From the IMG/VR virus record IMGVR_UViG_2737471993_000002: DNA of 64,000 nt; one strand, written 5' to 3'. The notes under the pieces are model-generated. The model did not search any database and was not told where the DNA came from. It was given only the letters and a program-made list of their open reading frames with translations. Every line of letters begins with the position of its first letter. Position 1 is the stretch's first letter. Origin of the DNA: a virus. Lineage: Duplodnaviria; Heunggongvirae; Uroviricota; Caudoviricetes. Shown here piece by piece: positions 25,192 to 60,122 of the stretch. The position numbers and the translations under genes were made by a program.

Positions 25192-25214
25192 AGGCGACTT
25201 TGGTCGCCTTTTTT
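25192..25214 (+). terminator. rho-independent terminator
   Basis: AGGCGAC-TTTG-GTCGCCT hairpin followed by TTTTTT. Confidence 0.7.
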
Positions 25215-25362
25215 GTTAACAGCCATTAATTCTCGCCTAAAAATTCTAAGGCAGCACCTACCATTTAACCTTTACACCACAGCCGTAGGCATTTAGGCTA
25301 TATCACATATAAGAAAACAAGTTGTTTCAGACGATAATTATATACGCAAAGGGAACTCTCCA

Positions 25363-28305: not shown

Positions 28306-29055
28306 GTGAGCCACATGAGCCAAATCTTTTTCGACACCATCGACAACGACCAGTACGACTTCATGACAGAGTGGAATACCGCTGTTATGGATAAGTGGGT
28401 TGCTGAAAACATTGGTTTGTCGCGCTGCAAAGACGAGGCTGAACTCTTCGATACGAAGTGGTTTGATTACCGCGACATGCATCCTCTTATGGCCACCTGT
28501 CTGTTTACGGAGGCATACAAACGTCAGTACTCAAATATCATGCTGACGCACGGTCGCGAACACTTTGAAACAGCTCCGTTCACCACCGGGTTAAAACGCC
28601 TGCCTTATCAGGAGTTGTCGACTGCCAATAAAACGTCGCTATGGAAAGCACGCCAGTTTGCTGACCGCTATTGCTGCTCATACGACTACTTTATCTCCAC
28701 CGTTCTTTCCGCAGCTGCACGACGTCTGTGGGACAAGCTGCCTCGCCCACAGCATTTGTGGCAGCCAGAACTGATTGAGATATTTGAAGAGAAATTAGCC
28801 AGACGCGCAACAACCCGTCTGGATGACTCTCTGGTTAGCTTTAAGCATATAGGAGACATGCAGTTCAACCCGATCCAGGAAAGCTATTTTGAGTGGATTC
28901 TGGAGCGTTTACGCACCATCCCCCGCAGCAAGCGCATACGCGCAATTTTCTCCGCTATCTGGCTAATGGAAATCGTTCCAGAGCGCCTTATTTCCGCCCA
29001 CTTTCCAGAAGAACTGGAAGAAGCACGGCGGTTTATTGATCCCCTATCTAATTAA
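28306..29055 (+). CDS. hypothetical protein (replication module)
   Basis: 249-aa ORF upstream of the helicase gene; no recognisable motif. Confidence 0.5.
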   Translation: MSHMSQIFFDTIDNDQYDFMTEWNTAVMDKWVAENIGLSRCKDEAELFDTKWFDYRDMHPLMATCLFTEAYKRQYSNIMLTHGREHFETAPFTTGLKRLPYQELSTANKTSLWKARQFADRYCCSYDYFISTVLSAAARRLWDKLPRPQHLWQPELIEIFEEKLARRATTRLDDSLVSFKHIGDMQFNPIQESYFEWILERLRTIPRSKRIRAIFSAIWLMEIVPERLISAHFPEELEEARRFIDPLSN

Positions 29056-29098
29056 CTAATACTAGAAAACAATTTGTTTAAAAAACAAAGGAAAGCAC

Positions 29099-52095: not shown

Positions 52096-52212
52096 TTTTT
52101 GATAGATAATAAGTAAGTACTGATCTATCATTTAACAGCTCGAAAGAGCCACGAATGAACGAAAGCCCAACGCGCATAGCGCCATCGGCCAAATCACAAC
52201 AAGGAGAAACAC

Positions 52213-53241
52213 ATGTCTAAGACATTACTTGATTTGCTTAACAAAACTCGTGAAGACATTGCCGCCAAACGTGGCAACAACGTTGATCTGACTCGCTTAA
52301 AAGACGGCGTCAACTATATCCGCATCTTCCCGAATAAAGACGACCCAAACGGTAAGTTCTTCCAGACTTTCGGTATGCACTACGTTAAGTATCAGAACGA
52401 GGAAGGTAAAGAAGCAACCAACGCTTATATTTGTGAGCAACATACTCACGGTCGCGCTTGTCAGCTATGCGAAATGGTTATGGAAGGTCGCGCTCGTCAC
52501 AAGGGTAACAAAGCAATGGAAGAACGCATCGGTCAAATGCGTGCCACTCCTCGCTACCTGGTCAACGGCATTCTTTCTGCTCGTGAGGATTTCGCAGATG
52601 CTGAGAAATGCCAGTTAATCGAGCTGCCGTCTACTGTATTCGATGATATCTGCAAAGCAATCACCGAAGACATCGCTGATGATATCGGCAATCCACTGAG
52701 CAAAGAGGAAGGCTACGCATTCCTGATTAAACGTACTGGCTCTGGTCGCGATACCAAATATGACGTCTCGCCTAAGCGTAAAGTCTACAAAGGCGATATC
52801 GAAGATAAATTCTGGAACACCCAGCATGATCTGATCGCATACGCAAATCAGGCTGATGAAACTCGTCTTCTGTCGACAGTTCGCACTATGGGTCGTCTGA
52901 TTGGCATCGCTGCACCAACTGCCGCAGCATCTGCACCAGCAATTTCCTCAACCGCGAAAACATCGGCTGCGGCACTACCTGGATTTGGCTCTGTCACTGG
53001 TCATACAGAAGGAGCGACGGCTGTAGCAACCGCGCACACACCGGCTTCTGAACCAACCAGTCTGGTTGATGAAGAAATCCTCCGTGCCGTTGAAACTGAA
53101 TTTAAACCAGAGGCAAGTTCCGCTGCCGTTGCCGTATCAGTCAAAGAGTCTGAAGCAGTCGCAGCGACATCTGTAGCAACCGCATCTGCGACGGAAGATG
53201 AAGGTCTGGATGACCTACTGAGAGAGCTGGACTCTCTGTAA
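52213..53241 (+). CDS. single-stranded DNA-binding protein (T4 gp32-like)
   Basis: Zn-binding-like C..H..C..C cluster (CEQHTHGRACQLCEM), N-terminal segment resembling the gp32 core, and acidic C-terminal tail (DEGLDDLLRELDSL). Confidence 0.6.
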   Translation: MSKTLLDLLNKTREDIAAKRGNNVDLTRLKDGVNYIRIFPNKDDPNGKFFQTFGMHYVKYQNEEGKEATNAYICEQHTHGRACQLCEMVMEGRARHKGNKAMEERIGQMRATPRYLVNGILSAREDFADAEKCQLIELPSTVFDDICKAITEDIADDIGNPLSKEEGYAFLIKRTGSGRDTKYDVSPKRKVYKGDIEDKFWNTQHDLIAYANQADETRLLSTVRTMGRLIGIAAPTAAASAPAISSTAKTSAAALPGFGSVTGHTEGATAVATAHTPASEPTSLVDEEILRAVETEFKPEASSAAVAVSVKESEAVAATSVATASATEDEGLDDLLRELDSL

Positions 53242-53250
53242 TCCCATTAC

Positions 53251-54246
53251 GTGACCAGTAAGGCGTCTACGGACGCCTTACTTTTTGGAAGGAATGTACC
53301 GGTGAATTATCTCTTCGTAGATGGCAATAGCCTGGGTTATTACCATCAACAATCTGACAAATTGCACAACGGCGAAATGGAAGTACAGGCTGCTTTCGGC
53401 TTTGTTAAGAACGTCCGTCGTTATGCCTCCATCCTCCATGCCCGACCTATGATTCTTTGGGATGGATTTAGTGACAAGCGTCGCGACTTTTACCCGGACT
53501 ACAAAGCAAATCGCGACGACGATCCTGATATGAAAAAGATGAAGGAAGGCTTTGCTATCCAGAAGCCATACATCCTCAAAATGATGACCGCGCTTGGAGT
53601 TACCCAACTCATTGCAAAAGATGCAGAAGCGGATGATCTGGCCGGGCTGCTGGTATCCCGCATGGCACCGCAGCCAACCGTTGAACACATCTATCTGTTA
53701 ACAGGCGATAGCGACTGGCTTCAGTTAGTTCGTGAAAACGTAAGCTGGGTAAGCCTGCGTGAAGACGCCAAAAACAAGCAGGTTAATTTTGAGCAATTTG
53801 CGGAGCTGACAGGATTCGCCACGCCTCGCGCATTTTTGGAAGCAAAAGCATTACAAGGCGATAACTCGGACAACATTAGCGGTGTTGGTGGCATTGGTGC
53901 TGGCGGTGCGAAAGAGCTGCTGCATGAATGGGGAAGTGTCGCAACGATGGTACGCGGCATCAACGACGGCTCAATCGTGGTTAATAAAGGGCGTCATAAG
54001 ACCGCCTTCAACAAACTAGCGAAGAATGCCTTCAACGAGAAAACAGGCTGTCGAATGCTCGAAGCGTTCAAGAGAAACATCACGCTAATGAACCTGATTG
54101 AGACGAAGTTTCCGCCTACCGAAATCGAAACAATCAAAGGCAATCGTGACGTGAAAGCATTCGAGCAACTGTGCTACGAGCTGAATTTCCGTTCGTTCCT
54201 TGAAGACCTTGAAGTGTTTGTTCTTCCATTCGAAAGGTATTTCTAA
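53251..54246 (+). CDS. 5'-3' exonuclease / flap endonuclease (RNase H-like)
   Basis: H3TH-like Gly-rich segment GDNSDNISGVGGIGAGGAKELL and N-terminal acidic PIN-like region (YLFVDGNSLGYY, TGDSDWLQL). Confidence 0.7.
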   Translation: MTSKASTDALLFGRNVPVNYLFVDGNSLGYYHQQSDKLHNGEMEVQAAFGFVKNVRRYASILHARPMILWDGFSDKRRDFYPDYKANRDDDPDMKKMKEGFAIQKPYILKMMTALGVTQLIAKDAEADDLAGLLVSRMAPQPTVEHIYLLTGDSDWLQLVRENVSWVSLREDAKNKQVNFEQFAELTGFATPRAFLEAKALQGDNSDNISGVGGIGAGGAKELLHEWGSVATMVRGINDGSIVVNKGRHKTAFNKLAKNAFNEKTGCRMLEAFKRNITLMNLIETKFPPTEIETIKGNRDVKAFEQLCYELNFRSFLEDLEVFVLPFERYF

Positions 54247-54514: not shown

Positions 54515-55588
54515 ATGGCAAAAGGAAAATCCGCACTGGCACTTGCTCTGAAAAAGAAAATCGGTAGCAACGACGAAATTCAGAAAGTAACTCATTGGAT
54601 TGATACAGGCTTTCCACCGTTAAACAAAGCTATTTCTGGTCGTTACGATGGCGGCTTCCCATGTGGTCGTATCGTCGAAGTATTCGGTCCTCCAAGTGCA
54701 GGGAAAACGTTCCTTGCAACAGCAGCGATGATCTCCGCTCAAAAACAAGATGGTCTGGCGGTATTCCTCGATCATGAAAACAGTTTTGACGTTGGCCTGG
54801 CTGTCGCCAATGGCCTGAACGCAGATGAGGATGACGGTCAGTGGGTATACAAGCAGCCAGATACCTTCGAAGACTCTGTAGAGTTGATCGGCACAATACT
54901 TAAATTGGTTCGTGATGAAGAGCTTATCCCCGAATCAGCACCAATCTGTATCGTGGCTGACTCTCTTGCGTCTATGGTTCCGAACTCCAAAGCCGAGAAG
55001 TTCGAAAAGATGGCTGAAGGCACTGCCAAAGACAAAGATCAGCTAAACATGAACGACAATACGGCACTGGCTCGTGCGACGAGTGCGAACTTCCCTACTC
55101 TGGCTTTGTGGGCACGCAAATACAACGCCTGCATCATCTTCTTGAATCAGGTTCGCACAAAAATCGGTGTAATGTTTGGCGACCCTACTACGTCGCCAGG
55201 TGGAGATTCACCGAAGTTCTACGCTTCTGTACGTATCCGTCTTGGTGCATCGGTGATGAAGGATGGTAAAGAGAAGATCGGCCAGGACGTAGGCGCAGAA
55301 TGCATCAAAAACAAAGTTGCACCACCGTATGGCAAATGCACCTGGAAATTCTACTTCGATCCTACTCGTGGCCTCGACGTTATCGAATCGCTCGTCGAGT
55401 ACATGCTGGAAGAAGGATACCTGCCAAAGAACGCCAGCGGGCGAGTTGAAATTGGTGACAAGAAATACACCAAATCGCAGATCGTCGAGATGTATCGGGA
55501 GAAGCCACTGGCTGAAATCATTGCGGCTTTGCAGGCAATCGACGACCGAAGAGCAAAAGACAACCCCACCGAGTCAGTAGAAGAGTAA
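54515..55588 (+). CDS. RecA/UvsX-family recombinase
   Basis: Walker A GPPSAGKTF and overall RecA-core layout; 357 aa. Confidence 0.75.
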   Translation: MAKGKSALALALKKKIGSNDEIQKVTHWIDTGFPPLNKAISGRYDGGFPCGRIVEVFGPPSAGKTFLATAAMISAQKQDGLAVFLDHENSFDVGLAVANGLNADEDDGQWVYKQPDTFEDSVELIGTILKLVRDEELIPESAPICIVADSLASMVPNSKAEKFEKMAEGTAKDKDQLNMNDNTALARATSANFPTLALWARKYNACIIFLNQVRTKIGVMFGDPTTSPGGDSPKFYASVRIRLGASVMKDGKEKIGQDVGAECIKNKVAPPYGKCTWKFYFDPTRGLDVIESLVEYMLEEGYLPKNASGRVEIGDKKYTKSQIVEMYREKPLAEIIAALQAIDDRRAKDNPTESVEE

Positions 55589-55593
55589 ACACA

Positions 55594-55617
55594 AGGCGTC
55601 CACAGGACGCCTTTTTT
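55594..55617 (+). terminator. rho-independent terminator
   Basis: AGGCGTC-CACAG-GACGCCT followed by TTTTTT. Confidence 0.7.
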
Positions 55618-55680
55618 ATCTCTTGAAAATATATAAGCACTTACTTATTATTTTCGCATAACAACCACATAGGAAAACAC

Positions 55681-55881
55681 ATGATCAAAATCTATCTATT
55701 GGCAGTAGCCACAGGCCTTTCAGTGGCTCTCATCTACGGTTTACTGGTTCCGTCGCTGATTTCTACCAAGAGTGATTTAGCCGTCATGTTTGGAGTTATC
55801 GTTGGTTTTGGTGCTCCTGTAATCGGTCTTATTGCTGGTCGTAAGTTTATCAACTCATTAATCAAAGCAAAGGGGAAATAA
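55681..55881 (+). CDS. small two-TM membrane protein
   Basis: 66 aa, two hydrophobic helices, immediately upstream of the SPFH gene. Confidence 0.4.
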   Translation: MIKIYLLAVATGLSVALIYGLLVPSLISTKSDLAVMFGVIVGFGAPVIGLIAGRKFINSLIKAKGK

Positions 55882-55884
55882 GTA

Positions 55885-56715
55885 ATGAAGAAAGGTTTAC
55901 TTGCAGTTGCTCTGGCGGCTATTTGCACAATGGGTCTTACTGGCTGTGATCGCGTGGAGCCTGGATACGTTGGCATCAAAGTAAACAAATTAGGTGAAGA
56001 CAAAGGGATTGGTGAAGTGGTTGGCGTTGGTCGCCAATGGACAGGTCTTAACACCGAACTTTACGTATTCCCGACCTTCAAACAAATGAAGACCTACGAC
56101 GAGCCGTTCACATTCCAGATGAGTGACGGTACTGCTATTGGTCACAAAATTGGCGTTGCGTATCTGGTTAATCGTGACAAGGTAACGACGGTGTTCCAGA
56201 CCTATCGCAAAGGCGTAGACGATATCACCGAATCAGATCTGCGTCAGAAAATTGCCGACTCTCTAAACCGTTTGGCCAGCCGTATGACCACTGACTCATT
56301 TATCGACGGTGGTAAGGCACAATTGCTGGACAACGCACTGAAAGATATTCAGAAAGAGATGTCTCCGGTTGGTATTGAGGTACTGAGCCTGTCATGGGTT
56401 GGAAAGCCTGATTACCCAAAAACTGTCATTGAATCTATTAACGCCAAAGTAACGGCTAACCAGCGTACTCTGCAACGTCAGCAGGAAGTTGAACAACGTA
56501 AAGCTGAGGCGAATATGCTACGTGAACAGGCTAATGGTGAAGCTGATGCTATCCGTGCTCGTGCGCAAGCAGAAGCAGACGCCATTCGTCTGCGCGGTGA
56601 AGCTCTGCGTCAAAACCCGAACGTTATGGAACTGGAAGCCATCAATAAATGGAATGGCCAGTTACCGCAGTACATGACTCAAGGGGCTAACACTCCTTTC
56701 ATTACAGTGAAATAA
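55885..56715 (+). CDS. SPFH/band-7 (stomatin/prohibitin-like) lipoprotein
   Basis: Lipobox LTGC after the signal peptide; band-7 core followed by a charged coiled-coil tail (QRQQEVEQRKAEANMLREQANGEADAIRARAQAEADAIRLRGEALRQ). Confidence 0.7.
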   Translation: MKKGLLAVALAAICTMGLTGCDRVEPGYVGIKVNKLGEDKGIGEVVGVGRQWTGLNTELYVFPTFKQMKTYDEPFTFQMSDGTAIGHKIGVAYLVNRDKVTTVFQTYRKGVDDITESDLRQKIADSLNRLASRMTTDSFIDGGKAQLLDNALKDIQKEMSPVGIEVLSLSWVGKPDYPKTVIESINAKVTANQRTLQRQQEVEQRKAEANMLREQANGEADAIRARAQAEADAIRLRGEALRQNPNVMELEAINKWNGQLPQYMTQGANTPFITVK

Positions 56716-56731
56716 CTCCCCTAAAAAGTTC

Positions 56732-56757
56732 AGGCGTCCAGTTGGACGCCTTTTTTA
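56732..56757 (+). terminator. rho-independent terminator, near-identical to the one at 55594
   Basis: CAGGCGTCCA-GTTGGACGCC followed by TTTTTT; same stem sequence as the 55594 terminator. Confidence 0.7.
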
Positions 56758-56806
56758 TCGCAATTATCTTATTAAGAAAACAATTTGTTTAAAAGGATAA
56801 GAAAAC

Positions 56807-57232
56807 ATGACAGCTATTAAGAAACTCTACGATGCCGCAAACGTGGCTCTGGATGTTATTGATGATGAAGCAGCAAAAGGCTTTCCTGAACCTGATTGGG
56901 CGCATCAGCTACGAAACGCTATCGCCGAAATGAATCCACCAGATCCGACCACCGACGAGACAGACTGGCAGCGATTTATCCGTATGTACGCTCAGGAAAT
57001 AGGTCCAACGCCAACGGCAGAGCAAGCAATGCTGCTGAAATACTTCAAAGAGGCGGGAGAGGATTTACCAATTGATGACTCAGCATATTGGTTCCACTGC
57101 GCATGGCGTAAGTATGACGTGATATTCACACAAGGCATGGGGAGCAAAGATATGGTTGTGTGGCATCTACTCCATATAGACACAGCCGTTGACAGAGTTA
57201 TTGAACAGTTTTTCCCTAAACAAGAAGATTGA
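56807..57232 (+). CDS. hypothetical protein
   Basis: 141-aa ORF preceded by the shared GAAAACAATTTGTTTAAAA element. Confidence 0.45.
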   Translation: MTAIKKLYDAANVALDVIDDEAAKGFPEPDWAHQLRNAIAEMNPPDPTTDETDWQRFIRMYAQEIGPTPTAEQAMLLKYFKEAGEDLPIDDSAYWFHCAWRKYDVIFTQGMGSKDMVVWHLLHIDTAVDRVIEQFFPKQED

Positions 57233-57287
57233 TCGCCTATTCATAACTAACAAAATAAGTAAACACTAACCACAAAAGGAAAAACAC

Positions 57288-57563
57288 ATGAGAGTTTTAG
57301 TTCGAATCGTTACCAGCACTGTCTATGACGTGTTTCCGCTTTTTATGGTCAAAGCCGATGGCCTTAACGACGAAGAAACTGACGCGCTGATCCAGCGTAT
57401 TCTCGTTGAATATACAGGTCATGACGCTGATTCAGTGATGGTTGATGATGATGGTGTTTGTTGGCATAACGGCAACTGTTGGTACGTAGAAGAGACTCAA
57501 CAAATCAGTGATGAAGATGCCGCACATCTTGAGCGTATTTTAAGCATCAGCACTTTTGAGTGA
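57288..57563 (+). CDS. hypothetical protein
   Basis: 91-aa acidic ORF preceded by the AAAGGAAAAACACATG leader. Confidence 0.45.
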   Translation: MRVLVRIVTSTVYDVFPLFMVKADGLNDEETDALIQRILVEYTGHDADSVMVDDDGVCWHNGNCWYVEETQQISDEDAAHLERILSISTFE

Positions 57564-58326: not shown

Positions 58327-58373
58327 ATGCAAACTGACTGCGGCACGTTCCGCAGTCATATTTCATAGTCGTC

Positions 58374-58906
58374 ACCGCTGACAGCATACACAATCAACTA
58401 CCGCTGATAGCATATCGAGAGTCTATCTCACCGCTCACAGCATACTTTACTCGATTTTTTACCGCTGACAGCATACTTAAGACATTGCATGAATAATGTG
58501 TACCGGTATGGGTATAACCAGAACAAAATTACCGCTGGCAGCATACGAAGGTCTGACATATACCATTAATTACCGCTGATAGCATATCCAAACAAAAATT
58601 CCTCAATAAAACACCGCTGACAGCATACGTTCTATCAGGGAGCAGCAGGCAATAAATGCCTTTCACTACAAGCAATCAGCGCAATAGCAATAGAATGTTA
58701 GTGAGCGCAAACCTATATGGAATGCACTCTTCGAGGTTAGTAACCACTGGGGAGGTATGACAGAGCATTGAGTGGTGATAGATGATTTACCGCCCACAGC
58801 ATACGTTCATCTCACTATACCGCTGGTAGCATATATTTAACCGTTTACAGCATACTTTTCAGAAAAATAGCCGCTGATAGCATACATTTCACCGCTGACA
58901 GCATAT
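58374..58906. repeat. iteron array downstream of repA (incA-like): twelve copies of a 16-bp repeat
   Basis: ACCGCTGACAGCATAC and one- or two-base variants at 58374, 58400, 58430, 58461, 58531, 58572, 58613, 58789, 58819, 58840, 58870 and 58891, with irregular spacing and mixed spacer lengths. Confidence 0.8.
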
Positions 58907-60000
58907 CAAAGCAGTTTGAGACTATTGGAAAGGATCTCAATCATCTTGATATTTTCAGGCGTCAAATTCTGCGAAAGTTCGGTTATCTTGTTGATAATGT
59001 TCTGTTTGGCATCAATTTCCCCAGCTTTCTCATCTAGTTTTTTGGGTTCGATGTCTTCAGGTTTTGGCGGTGCGACTTTGAGTTTTGGATTGCGGCTGTG
59101 AATCTGGATATAGATCGACCGCCCTCGCTTAATCTCGCTGTATTCGAGATAACCCAAATCTTGGAGAGCTTTTAAGCCGTTGCGTATAGTCTGATTCTGC
59201 GAGCTGACATTCCTGCTACTCAAATTGAGTCGCGCACGCAATCGAGCAAGCGATACCGGCGCAGGCTTGGTTGGAAGACTTTCGATGAAGGTGTACAGAG
59301 CCTGTGCTGTTTCTTTGCGTGGTAGCTTATTGATAACCTTTAACTGCAAAAGAACCTTATGGTCAAAGCGATATAGTTCGGCCAGCTTCGGTTCTGCATA
59401 GAACACCACCGTATCTTTCTGCTCGTTGTAGTCCACGCTATTGATGAGGTGCACCATCAGAAGCGAGATCTTGTTAGAGCCGTCGACGTTCTTTTCTTCA
59501 TACGTTCTCTGGAAAGACAGAGTTGTACGCATGATCTTCAAAAGACTGTTTGTAAGCCGGTCGCGGAGTGTTTTGCGGATCTGTGACGATGGATAGCCAC
59601 AAAACTTCGCAAATTTCGTGATGCTTAACTCGACACGACCGTTAGGTTCGCCGTATTCTGCCAGCGAACGCACAACGCCCACCCACGTTTTGAAATCATG
59701 ATCCATGTCGAGACGAGGACCGGTTATCTTGATATCGGAATAGCCTTCAGAACGGGCTACTTCGAGCTGAACAAGCTCCTTTGAAGCATCGATCTCATTT
59801 GGCTTGTTACGCTTGCTGTATTTTGTCCCCTTGAGCGTGGGCACGAACAATCCCAGCCGCATCAACGCAATTGGTTGGACTGTATTGTTGCTATTAGGGA
59901 CAAGTTCCCCTGTGTACAATTCAAGGGAACCTTCTTCAAAGTTGTCGAGATTATCTTCTACTTCTTTGTTATTTTTACCTTTTTTATTTTTTGTGGACAT
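58906..60000 (-). CDS. repA: iteron-binding replication initiator RepA
   Basis: 364-aa basic protein flanked on both sides by the same 16-bp iterons. The track ORF (to 60120) is extended through the upstream iterons; the ATG at 60000 (MSTKNKKGK...) is the plausible start. Confidence 0.7.
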   Translation of the reverse strand: MSTKNKKGKNNKEVEDNLDNFEEGSLELYTGELVPNSNNTVQPIALMRLGLFVPTLKGTKYSKRNKPNEIDASKELVQLEVARSEGYSDIKITGPRLDMDHDFKTWVGVVRSLAEYGEPNGRVELSITKFAKFCGYPSSQIRKTLRDRLTNSLLKIMRTTLSFQRTYEEKNVDGSNKISLLMVHLINSVDYNEQKDTVVFYAEPKLAELYRFDHKVLLQLKVINKLPRKETAQALYTFIESLPTKPAPVSLARLRARLNLSSRNVSSQNQTIRNGLKALQDLGYLEYSEIKRGRSIYIQIHSRNPKLKVAPPKPEDIEPKKLDEKAGEIDAKQNIINKITELSQNLTPENIKMIEILSNSLKLL

Positions 60001-60020
60001 GTGGACACCTTTGTCATTCA

Positions 60021-60122
60021 ACCGCTGACAGCATACTTGATTTGCCGCTGACAGAATACCAAAAACAGTTGGCAGCATACGGTGAACCGCTGACAGACTA
60101 TCAATTACCGCTGACAGCATAC
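60021..60122. repeat. iteron array upstream of repA (incC/origin-like): four to five copies
   Basis: ACCGCTGACAGCATAC-type repeats at 60021, 60044, 60086 and 60107, plus a partial copy near 60067. Confidence 0.8.

Follow-up and report, generated by a model that had tools for sequence, protein, structure and literature searches.

A two-gene module encoding a small membrane protein (smp) and an SPFH/Band 7 lipoprotein is located between the genes for a RecA-like recombinase (recA) and a DUF7238 protein in the window analyzed here, a 64,000-nucleotide (nt) stretch of the IMG/VR virus record IMGVR_UViG_2737471993_000002. This module probably represents a self-contained accessory cassette of the moron type, situated just downstream of the recA terminator (T1), with its own terminator (T2) constituting a paralogous copy of T1, such that the terminator repeats both insulate and delimit the cassette. 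Between T1 and T2 a promoter, smp and the SPFH gene are found, and nothing else. As envisaged here, the cassette would comprise a regulated sigma-70 promoter of its own, two genes in close succession and T2. T1 would stop transcription of the recombination operon and T2 would stop the cassette transcripts before an operator-like element and the downstream genes, while recombination between the 27-28 nt terminator repeats would precisely remove the cassette and leave a single terminator.

The T1 hairpin (55593-55613; AAGGCGTCC-ACA-GGACGCCTT) has a stem of 9 base pairs (bp) and a 3-nt loop and is followed by TTTTATC, while the T2 hairpin (56732-56751; AGGCGTCC-AGTT-GGACGCCT), with an 8 bp stem and a 4-nt loop, is followed by TTTTTATC. 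Both combine the G+C-rich stem, short loop and direct T-run of intrinsic terminators, with six T each, and their fold energies (T1: -15.0 kcal/mol; T2: -15.4 kcal/mol; z ~ -4.9) were equaled by none of 200 shuffled sequences. Outside the loop the two copies match at 25 positions, which correspond to AGGCGTCC, together with the first loop base A, and GGACGCCTTTTTTATC, the latter forming a perfect 16-nt direct repeat with its copies 1139 nt apart. A scan of the whole window for hairpins with T-runs returned 11 terminator candidates, among which T1 and T2, with an 8-nt arm in common, form the closest pair. The two near-identical terminators with the same stem described in the initial annotation are borne out by this repeat, the matching positions and the fold statistics. 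The same annotation held that its view would fail if T1 and T2 were no closer to one another than to other terminators of the genome; they are the closest pair of the 11, although their stem also occurs in a third, older terminator hairpin (T0, discussed below).

A comparison across relatives, proposed in the initial annotation as a check, reveals a cassette-like pattern of presence and absence. A RecA protein search provided 80 IMG/VR loci, of which 41 contain an intact cassette and five a truncated or replaced one, while 34 lack SPFH, two of the latter retaining a fragment of smp. The recA-DUF7238 junction is furthermore found in 204 of 5426 complete E. coli genomes, always plasmid-borne, and is contiguous (empty) in 8/204. 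Empty loci include L005, L078, L079, L006, L086-L090 and the Klebsiella-type loci. In E. coli D9 plasmid A (L005) both genes are absent from between flanks that are 97% identical, and DUF7238 directly adjoins the recA terminator, as is characteristic of the E. coli-type empty sites. In the remaining genomes the BLAST match of an empty-site query is split in two, and among the matches listed the left piece extends to query position 133, with most right pieces beginning at 107. This overlap corresponds to the 27-nt terminator, indicating one copy at the empty site versus two at the occupied site. At L005 and L078/L079 the recA stop is followed by CAAGGCGTCC-ACA-GGACGCC-TTTTTTATCG and the right flank, which amounts to the left side and loop of T1 joined to the right side of T2. 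The Enterobacter-type empty loci, which are SSU5-related, carry a T2-type loop (ACTT) with the left flank of T1, so that the crossover point differs, while the Klebsiella-type elements contain a single terminator with the loop ATT. Across the loci, the terminator loops ACA, AGTT, ATT, GTT, AAAC, GAAT and ACTT were observed. As the empty relatives hold exactly one terminator copy on the same flanks, the repeats mark the ends of an insertion or deletion.

It could be argued that the likeness of T1 and T2 is a coincidental convergence of short G+C-rich terminators, unrelated to cassette movement, as the composition of terminator stems is restricted and an exact 16-mer repeat is not very rare in 64 kilobases (kb), with approximately 0.5 expected by our own estimate. 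This is hardly credible, however, since the repeat lies exactly at both ends of the insertion or deletion in many genomes, the empty site keeps one copy with hybrid flanks, and the T1/T2 pair is conserved in Salmonella phage SSU5 at ~80% overall identity.

The junctions alone are symmetrical and fit insertion as well as deletion. An ancestral empty state, where the cassette was gained, possibly repeatedly, at the recA terminator and the second terminator copy arose through the insertion itself rather than serving as a substrate for loss, would suit this symmetry, as well as the uniformly empty state and single terminator of the Klebsiella type, which is the most numerous and most divergent lineage. 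This alternative nevertheless appears improbable. The empty loci L078 and L079 are nested among occupied E. coli-type loci, sharing 99.2-99.5% identity with their occupied relatives on both flanks, and L005 is not their nearest relative, which points to two or more events with an identical outcome. The synonymous divergence (dS) between the window and SSU5 is 1.7 for the SPFH gene and 1.5 for recA, showing that the cassette diverged in step with its flanks and is old in the E. coli-type and SSU5 lineages, and the more distant Klebsiella element L011 harbors the module and its promoter at the same locus. The nested empty loci, the second crossover point, the co-divergence and the occupancy of L011 favor loss in the occupied clades, and we infer that loss by recombination between the repeats, rather than repeated gain, explains the empty sites inside these clades. 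An original insertion that duplicated the recA terminator is compatible with the uniformly empty Klebsiella lineage.

Table 1. Features of the cassette and its surroundings in the window.
Feature	Position	Strand	Evidence
T0, third terminator-like hairpin, between the genes for a gp32-like single-stranded DNA-binding protein (SSB) and an exonuclease	53258..53287	+	-19.8 kcal/mol, z = -4.7
RecA-like recombinase gene, left neighbor of the cassette	54515..55588	+	Pfam RecA E = 2.2e-42; called RecA/recombinase in relatives
T1, intrinsic terminator ending the recA operon and left-hand copy of the 27-28 nt repeat	55593..55620	+	Hairpin; sole copy where the cassette is absent
Sigma-70-type promoter of the cassette	55623..55651	+	TTGAAA-17-TATTAT, 10/12 consensus positions
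smp, 66 amino acids, two predicted hydrophobic helices and a basic C-terminal tail	55681..55881	+	phrog_1130 E = 2e-25; hydropathy
SPFH/Band 7 lipoprotein (predicted), 276 amino acids	55885..56715	+	PF01145 E = 2.6e-30; phrog_200 E = 3e-108
T2, intrinsic terminator ending the cassette and right-hand copy of the repeat	56732..56759	+	Hairpin and T-tract
Conserved element AAGAAAACAATTTGTTT, between terminator and DUF7238	56774..56790	+	Palindrome AAACAA-T-TTGTTT at 56778-56790
DUF7238 gene, right neighbor of the cassette	56807..57232	+	Pfam PF23885 E = 2.3e-37

The third hairpin, T0, consists of GTAAGGCGTC-TACG-GACGCCTTAC, with a UACG tetraloop, followed by TTTTT, and its core (53260-53279; AAGGCGTC-TACG-GACGCCTT) contains the 7-8 bp stem core that is common to T1 and T2. 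It is kept in SSU5, in the Enterobacter and Klebsiella elements and in the distant L011, cassette-free genomes included, and the shared stem is therefore a feature of a local terminator lineage and not of the module only. A looser relative of the T0/T1/T2 hairpin can also be observed at 25192 in the window.

The repetition of this hairpin could alternatively reflect function rather than duplication, with the stem serving as a sequence-specific RNA or DNA signal for an antiterminator, an RNA-binding regulator, a nuclease or a site-specific recombinase. The presence of the same stem in T0, T1 and T2 on one strand within 3.5 kb, and its retention in the 73%-identical L011, would be in keeping with such a signal. 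T1 of L040, however, shows a compensatory GGCGCCC/GGGCGCC stem and that of L059 a G-U intermediate, which indicates that the structure of the hairpin is under selection and speaks against a sequence-specific signal. Furthermore, the loops differ freely, T-runs typical of intrinsic terminators follow all three hairpins, and a search of Rfam gave no relevant match for the hairpins. Two consecutive annotated terminators with the common stem GCCCTCC...GGAGGGC are also found in the N4-like phage Jura (L093 854-875, 1256-1278), suggesting that phages may commonly employ one terminator stem at neighboring gene boundaries. A dedicated signal is consequently considered very unlikely. The compensatory stem of L040 is confined to T1, and the two copies do not evolve in concert.

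Returning to the cassette as an independent unit, the 17-nt spacer of its promoter (55629-55645; ATATATAAGCACTTACT) contains the sequence TAAG-CA-CTTA, and the string ATATATAAG(C/T)ACTTACT is near-invariant across lineages that differ by 20-40% elsewhere, suggesting that a regulator binds there. The spacer may function as an operator; a visual comparison with several host regulator boxes gave nothing convincing. In an alignment of seven lineages the promoter, including its spacer, is better conserved than the surrounding coding sequence, and it is kept in L011, whose recA is only 73% identical. Within IMG/VR the promoter is observed in SSU5-like contexts only, and there is no indication that the cassette travels together with its promoter from one phage type to another. 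The stop codon of smp and the ATG of the SPFH gene are separated by 3 nt, with the ribosome-binding site located within the 3' end of smp, while the two genes overlap in P88, L011 and Jura.

Transcription of the cassette was assessed by re-reading published RNA sequencing (RNA-seq) data for E. coli LF82 with the phage Cyrano (S1 Table of PMC9928086; values given as log2(FPKM+5), where FPKM denotes fragments per kilobase per million), which cover stationary phase in lysogeny broth (LB) and two time points, 1 and 6 h, for bacteria alone as well as for macrophages. Cyrano shares 95% identity with the window, encodes an identical SPFH protein and has the same T2 hairpin and T-tract. At 6 h in macrophages smp (CYRAN_56; 7.6-7.7) and SPFH (CYRAN_57; 7.25-7.4) lie approximately 10-fold above both silent flanks, namely recA (CYRAN_55; 4.06/4.05) and the downstream gene (CYRAN_58; 4.2/3.9). 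In LB the cassette genes are near background (smp: 2.32, the floor; SPFH: 3.0-4.3), with recA at 3.1-3.6 and the downstream gene at 2.3-2.7. Gene-level counts drop approximately 10-fold across T2, from SPFH to the next gene, while T1 is not readable since recA is silent. This pattern supports an independent unit that ends at T2 and is regulated rather than constitutive. Some structural genes are also raised in the 6-h macrophage sample, which is compatible with partial induction. The proposal in the initial annotation that the two genes form their own transcription unit agrees with the conserved promoter, T2 and the levels of the Cyrano genes above their silent flanks. Its wider picture of the module holds for the structure but requires amendment elsewhere, in that a third terminator uses the stem as well, the element is a phage-plasmid and its cassette is silent in LB lysogens.

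The sequence between T2 and DUF7238 provides a possible reason for such insulation. An element of the form AAGAAAACAA-N-TTGTTT follows the recA terminator and is invariant in occupied and empty relatives. Copies preceded by TATC are also located at 25301-25324, before a parA-like gene (25363), and at 29053-29076, before a helicase gene (29099), and the palindrome AAACAA-N-TTGTTT has four matches in the window versus 0.31 expected. The copy downstream of T2 may represent an operator or a (phage-specific) promoter element of the downstream genes. If it controls these genes, a cassette inserted upstream of it would need its own terminator, which would provide a plausible rationale for the insulation.

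The smp protein matches no Pfam or NCBIfam family and lacks an NfeD C-terminal domain, but its loop motif LLVPSLISTKSD is conserved (LLVPSLIS-x-KSD). A homolog is located directly upstream of the SPFH gene in Jura (gp19-gp20), phiP27 (where it is unannotated), P88, the P1-like L009 and L011, while one small gene lies between the two in PVP-SE1. The pair furthermore occurs across N4-like, rV5-like, P1-like, P2-like and Shiga toxin (Stx) phages. In 11 of 79 distant homologs the two-helix domain of smp is fused to the N-terminus of SPFH, ahead of the lipobox region. This conserved adjacency and the natural fusions provide strong genomic evidence that smp and SPFH act together, and the pairing of SPFH with a small membrane partner noted in the initial annotation finds good support in the synteny seen across many phages and in the fusions. 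Purifying selection acts on both genes (dN/dS: smp 0.08-0.27; SPFH 0.03), and dN/dS gives no sign of diversifying selection on smp, which is simply less constrained. The window and Cyrano (L001) are 100% identical on either side of positions 55500-55900, while this 400-nt patch, comprising the recA 3' end, T1, the promoter and smp, is only 58-88% identical and leaves SPFH untouched. The smp gene therefore exists as exchangeable alleles, of at least four types, on an invariant SPFH background.

In the P1-like plasmid L009 (1445-4660) smp (78 amino acids) and SPFH are located between dmt and a dnaB/ban homolog, whereas P1 itself harbors plp, upl and tciABC in the dmt-ban region. The pair has been exchanged into this variable region in L009. 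The upl-plp genes of P1, initially considered as the same module, were rejected, as P1 plp encodes a 125-amino acid protein on the other strand. A tRNA-like sequence was also noticed by eye right after the SPFH stop codon of L009.

The translated SPFH product is predicted to consist of a signal peptide, a lipobox (LTGC; Cys21) with Asp at position +2, an SPFH domain, a long coiled-coil helix and a C-terminal tail. The SPFH domain (residues 23-209) is recognized by the PF01145 profile with 106 bits, against a cut-off of 23.6, and the N-terminus, MKKGLLAVALAAICTMGLTGC-D, fits the lipobox rule [LVI][ASTVI][GAS]C with Asp at +2. The lipobox Cys is invariant in nine phage homologs, with Asp or Glu next to it in most of the enterobacterial ones, and a lipobox-like motif is found in 55/79 distant homologs. 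In E. coli, Asp at +2 of a lipoprotein leads to avoidance of the Lol system and retention in the inner membrane. The protein is thus predicted to be a lipoprotein retained in the inner membrane and facing the periplasm, and the PF01145 match, signal peptide and lipobox accord with the lipoprotein of the SPFH family named in the initial annotation. A monomer AlphaFold model, built on the 79 diverse homologs with representatives drawn from a 1.84 billion-sequence scan, has a mean predicted local distance difference test (pLDDT) score of 92.8 and comprises the SPFH domain, a 65-residue helix (179-243) and a short C-terminal segment. Foldseek comparison of this model identified prohibitin, HflC, HflK, erlin, stomatin, flotillin and QmcA (e-values: 4e-14 to 2.5e-7, over 260-300 columns; around 1e-13 to 1e-11 for prohibitin, HflC/HflK, erlin and stomatin), and the modeled protein adopts the fold of cage-forming SPFH subunits. 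The NCBIfam scores for HflC (TIGR01932; 30.2 bits versus a cut-off of 134.4) and HflK (TIGR01933; 18.7 versus 159.4) are far below their cut-offs, indicating that the protein belongs to a separate subfamily.

The scan of 1.84 billion representatives returned 195 relatives at E <= 1e-30 and 902 at E <= 1e-10, and SPFH homologs are present in 413 phage records, many of them of virulent phages. In P88 and the P1-like element the smp-SPFH pair is located in early-operon regions. The many virulent carriers and this early-operon placement suggest that involvement in the infection cycle is no less likely than an advantage for the host. The smp and SPFH proteins may form one periplasm-facing oligomeric complex. 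Most tentatively, this complex might act at the inner membrane, either in early infection or during envelope stress, for example through the exclusion of incoming phage DNA, membrane protection or the control of a membrane protease; a possible part in envelope stress or exclusion was also put forward in the initial annotation. A more specific version, conceivable but rather unlikely, is a phage cage of the HflK/C or prohibitin type on the inner membrane that would enclose or sequester FtsH or a component of phage DNA entry, with smp as a membrane-embedded adaptor swapped as an allele on an invariant SPFH, and that would be deployed by virulent and temperate phages alike (N4 gp19-gp20, rV5-, P1- and P2-like, Stx and SSU5-like phages). 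Searches of PADLOC-DB 2.0 returned no family for smp, SPFH or DUF7238 at E <= 0.1. An HflK/C-like protein of a Pasteurella prophage has been reported as a virulence factor (PMC9872710), which provides no more than a lead. A paper on Pseudomonas SPFH proteins mentions neither phages nor lipoproteins.

The window can be assigned to the E. coli SSU5-like phage-plasmids, among which the region is 99-100% identical (Escherichia phage CMS-2020a and plasmid CP099286), and it shares ~80% identity with Salmonella phage SSU5. The genes on the plus strand are ordered as gp32-like SSB, 5'-3' exonuclease, a small open reading frame, the RecA-like recombinase, smp, SPFH and DUF7238, downstream of which more small genes and then a RepA replicon are found. 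The recA-DUF7238 gap holds other genes in several relatives, such as a NinX-like gene in the SSU5 type. In the L010 type (L010 5146-7774; also L032, L033, L082 and L091) SPFH is cut after approximately codon 60 and is followed by a gene for an HsdM-type N6 DNA methylase (type I restriction-modification), so that the gap also receives defense cargo. The L008 type (L008 5297-7317; also L004, L017, L028 and L029) contains three extra genes between the post-T2 element and DUF7238, one of which encodes a DUF1281_C/Api92-like domain, and in L020 a deletion extends from codon 50 of SPFH into the third of these genes.

Additional features can be observed in the surrounding block. The RecA-like gene of the window is intein-free (1074 nt; 54515-55588), while in many close relatives, including Cyrano, it contains a ~1.27-kb LAGLIDADG intein/homing-endonuclease insertion and totals 2340 nt (inserted genes: L001 1950-4289, L005 1501-3840 and L006 1501-3843). 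Four 18-nt direct repeats (TCACCGCTGACAGCATAC) with a spacing of 26-31 nt are located at 58372-58476, adjoining the RepA gene (58906-60120, minus strand), and are likely iterons of the plasmid replicon. Several genes of the block also have a near-identical translation start context, (A/G)GGA(G/A)AAACACATG, in common (52196-52215, 55664-55683 and 57271-57290).

Several observations weigh against a terminator-bounded accessory cassette as envisaged here. T0 uses the same stem and a similar hairpin is found at 25192, so that the likeness of T1 and T2 could in part represent a shared local terminator type. The direction of change was derived by parsimony, and the loops, which mutate freely, make poor markers. 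A crossover within only 7-8 nt is required for the Enterobacter-type junction. Not every breakpoint lies at the terminators, as the allele swap between the window and Cyrano runs from within recA to the start of SPFH. Unlike in classical morons, a compositional test for foreign origin was negative, with a G+C content of 45.4% for the cassette versus 45.9% for the window (recA: 48.9%; DUF7238: 46.7%). The RNA-seq data derive from a single study in duplicate, on a phage (Cyrano) whose T1/promoter/smp allele differs from that of the window. The cassette is also not on the list of morons expressed in LB lysogens (PMC9928086), and the literature searched contained no functional study of phage SPFH proteins or of N4 gp19/gp20.

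The arrangement itself is of an ordinary kind, a moron-like cassette gained or lost at a variable locus in a well-known family of phage-plasmids, and its genes belong to families that are already catalogued. It does, however, provide a clean and countable example of accessory gene gain and loss in phage-plasmids, in which a duplicated terminator doubles as transcriptional insulator and as the boundary of the insertion or deletion. The part most deserving of follow-up is the smp-SPFH pair, a conserved and sometimes fused unit across very different phages, N4 included, and as such a reasonable target for the study of how phages handle the host inner membrane.

The moron concept is reportedly due to Juhala and Hendrix. 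As the term is used in one study, a moron of a temperate phage is a promoter-gene-terminator unit between otherwise adjacent genes (PMC9928086). The cassette resembles morons in its location between recA and DUF7238, which are adjacent in close relatives, in its own sigma-70 promoter and terminator, and in its apparent transcription, in Cyrano, apart from silent flanks. It differs in that it shows no contrast in base composition, its terminator is a copy of that of its neighbor, and the same gene pair is also found in the early-operon region of P2-like and P1-like phages and in a virulent N4-like phage.

Among cellular systems, the HflK/HflC proteins, which form the FtsH cage, and prohibitin provide the best profile and structure matches, which span the entire protein from the SPFH domain through the long coiled-coil helix to the C-terminal segment. 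The SPFH domain of HflK/C lies in the periplasm, and the same side is predicted for that of the cassette protein. The latter, however, shares only 14-18% identity with these proteins, is predicted to be lipid-anchored rather than attached by an N-terminal helix, and is encoded by a single gene instead of a K/C pair; a link to FtsH would be by analogy alone. The SPFH-NfeD operons (QmcA-YbbJ, YqiK-YqiJ and archaeal stomatin-NfeD) likewise combine SPFH with a co-transcribed small membrane protein, apparently a dedicated partner, and the pair is sometimes fused. The cassette partner, by contrast, consists of two helices only, is encoded upstream and has no NfeD domain, and QmcA is a weaker match to the cassette SPFH (E = 0.008 by sequence profile; 2.5e-7 by fold). 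The gp19-gp20 genes of N4 (phrog_1130 and phrog_200) constitute the same two-gene module. In Jura gp19 (68 amino acids) overlaps gp20, whose SPFH lipoprotein product is 64% identical, and in the record the pair is flanked on either side by annotated terminators. Jura nevertheless differs in being a virulent phage, in carrying the pair among gp17-gp24 (annotated by BLAST to N4), and in having flanking terminators that are not copies of each other.

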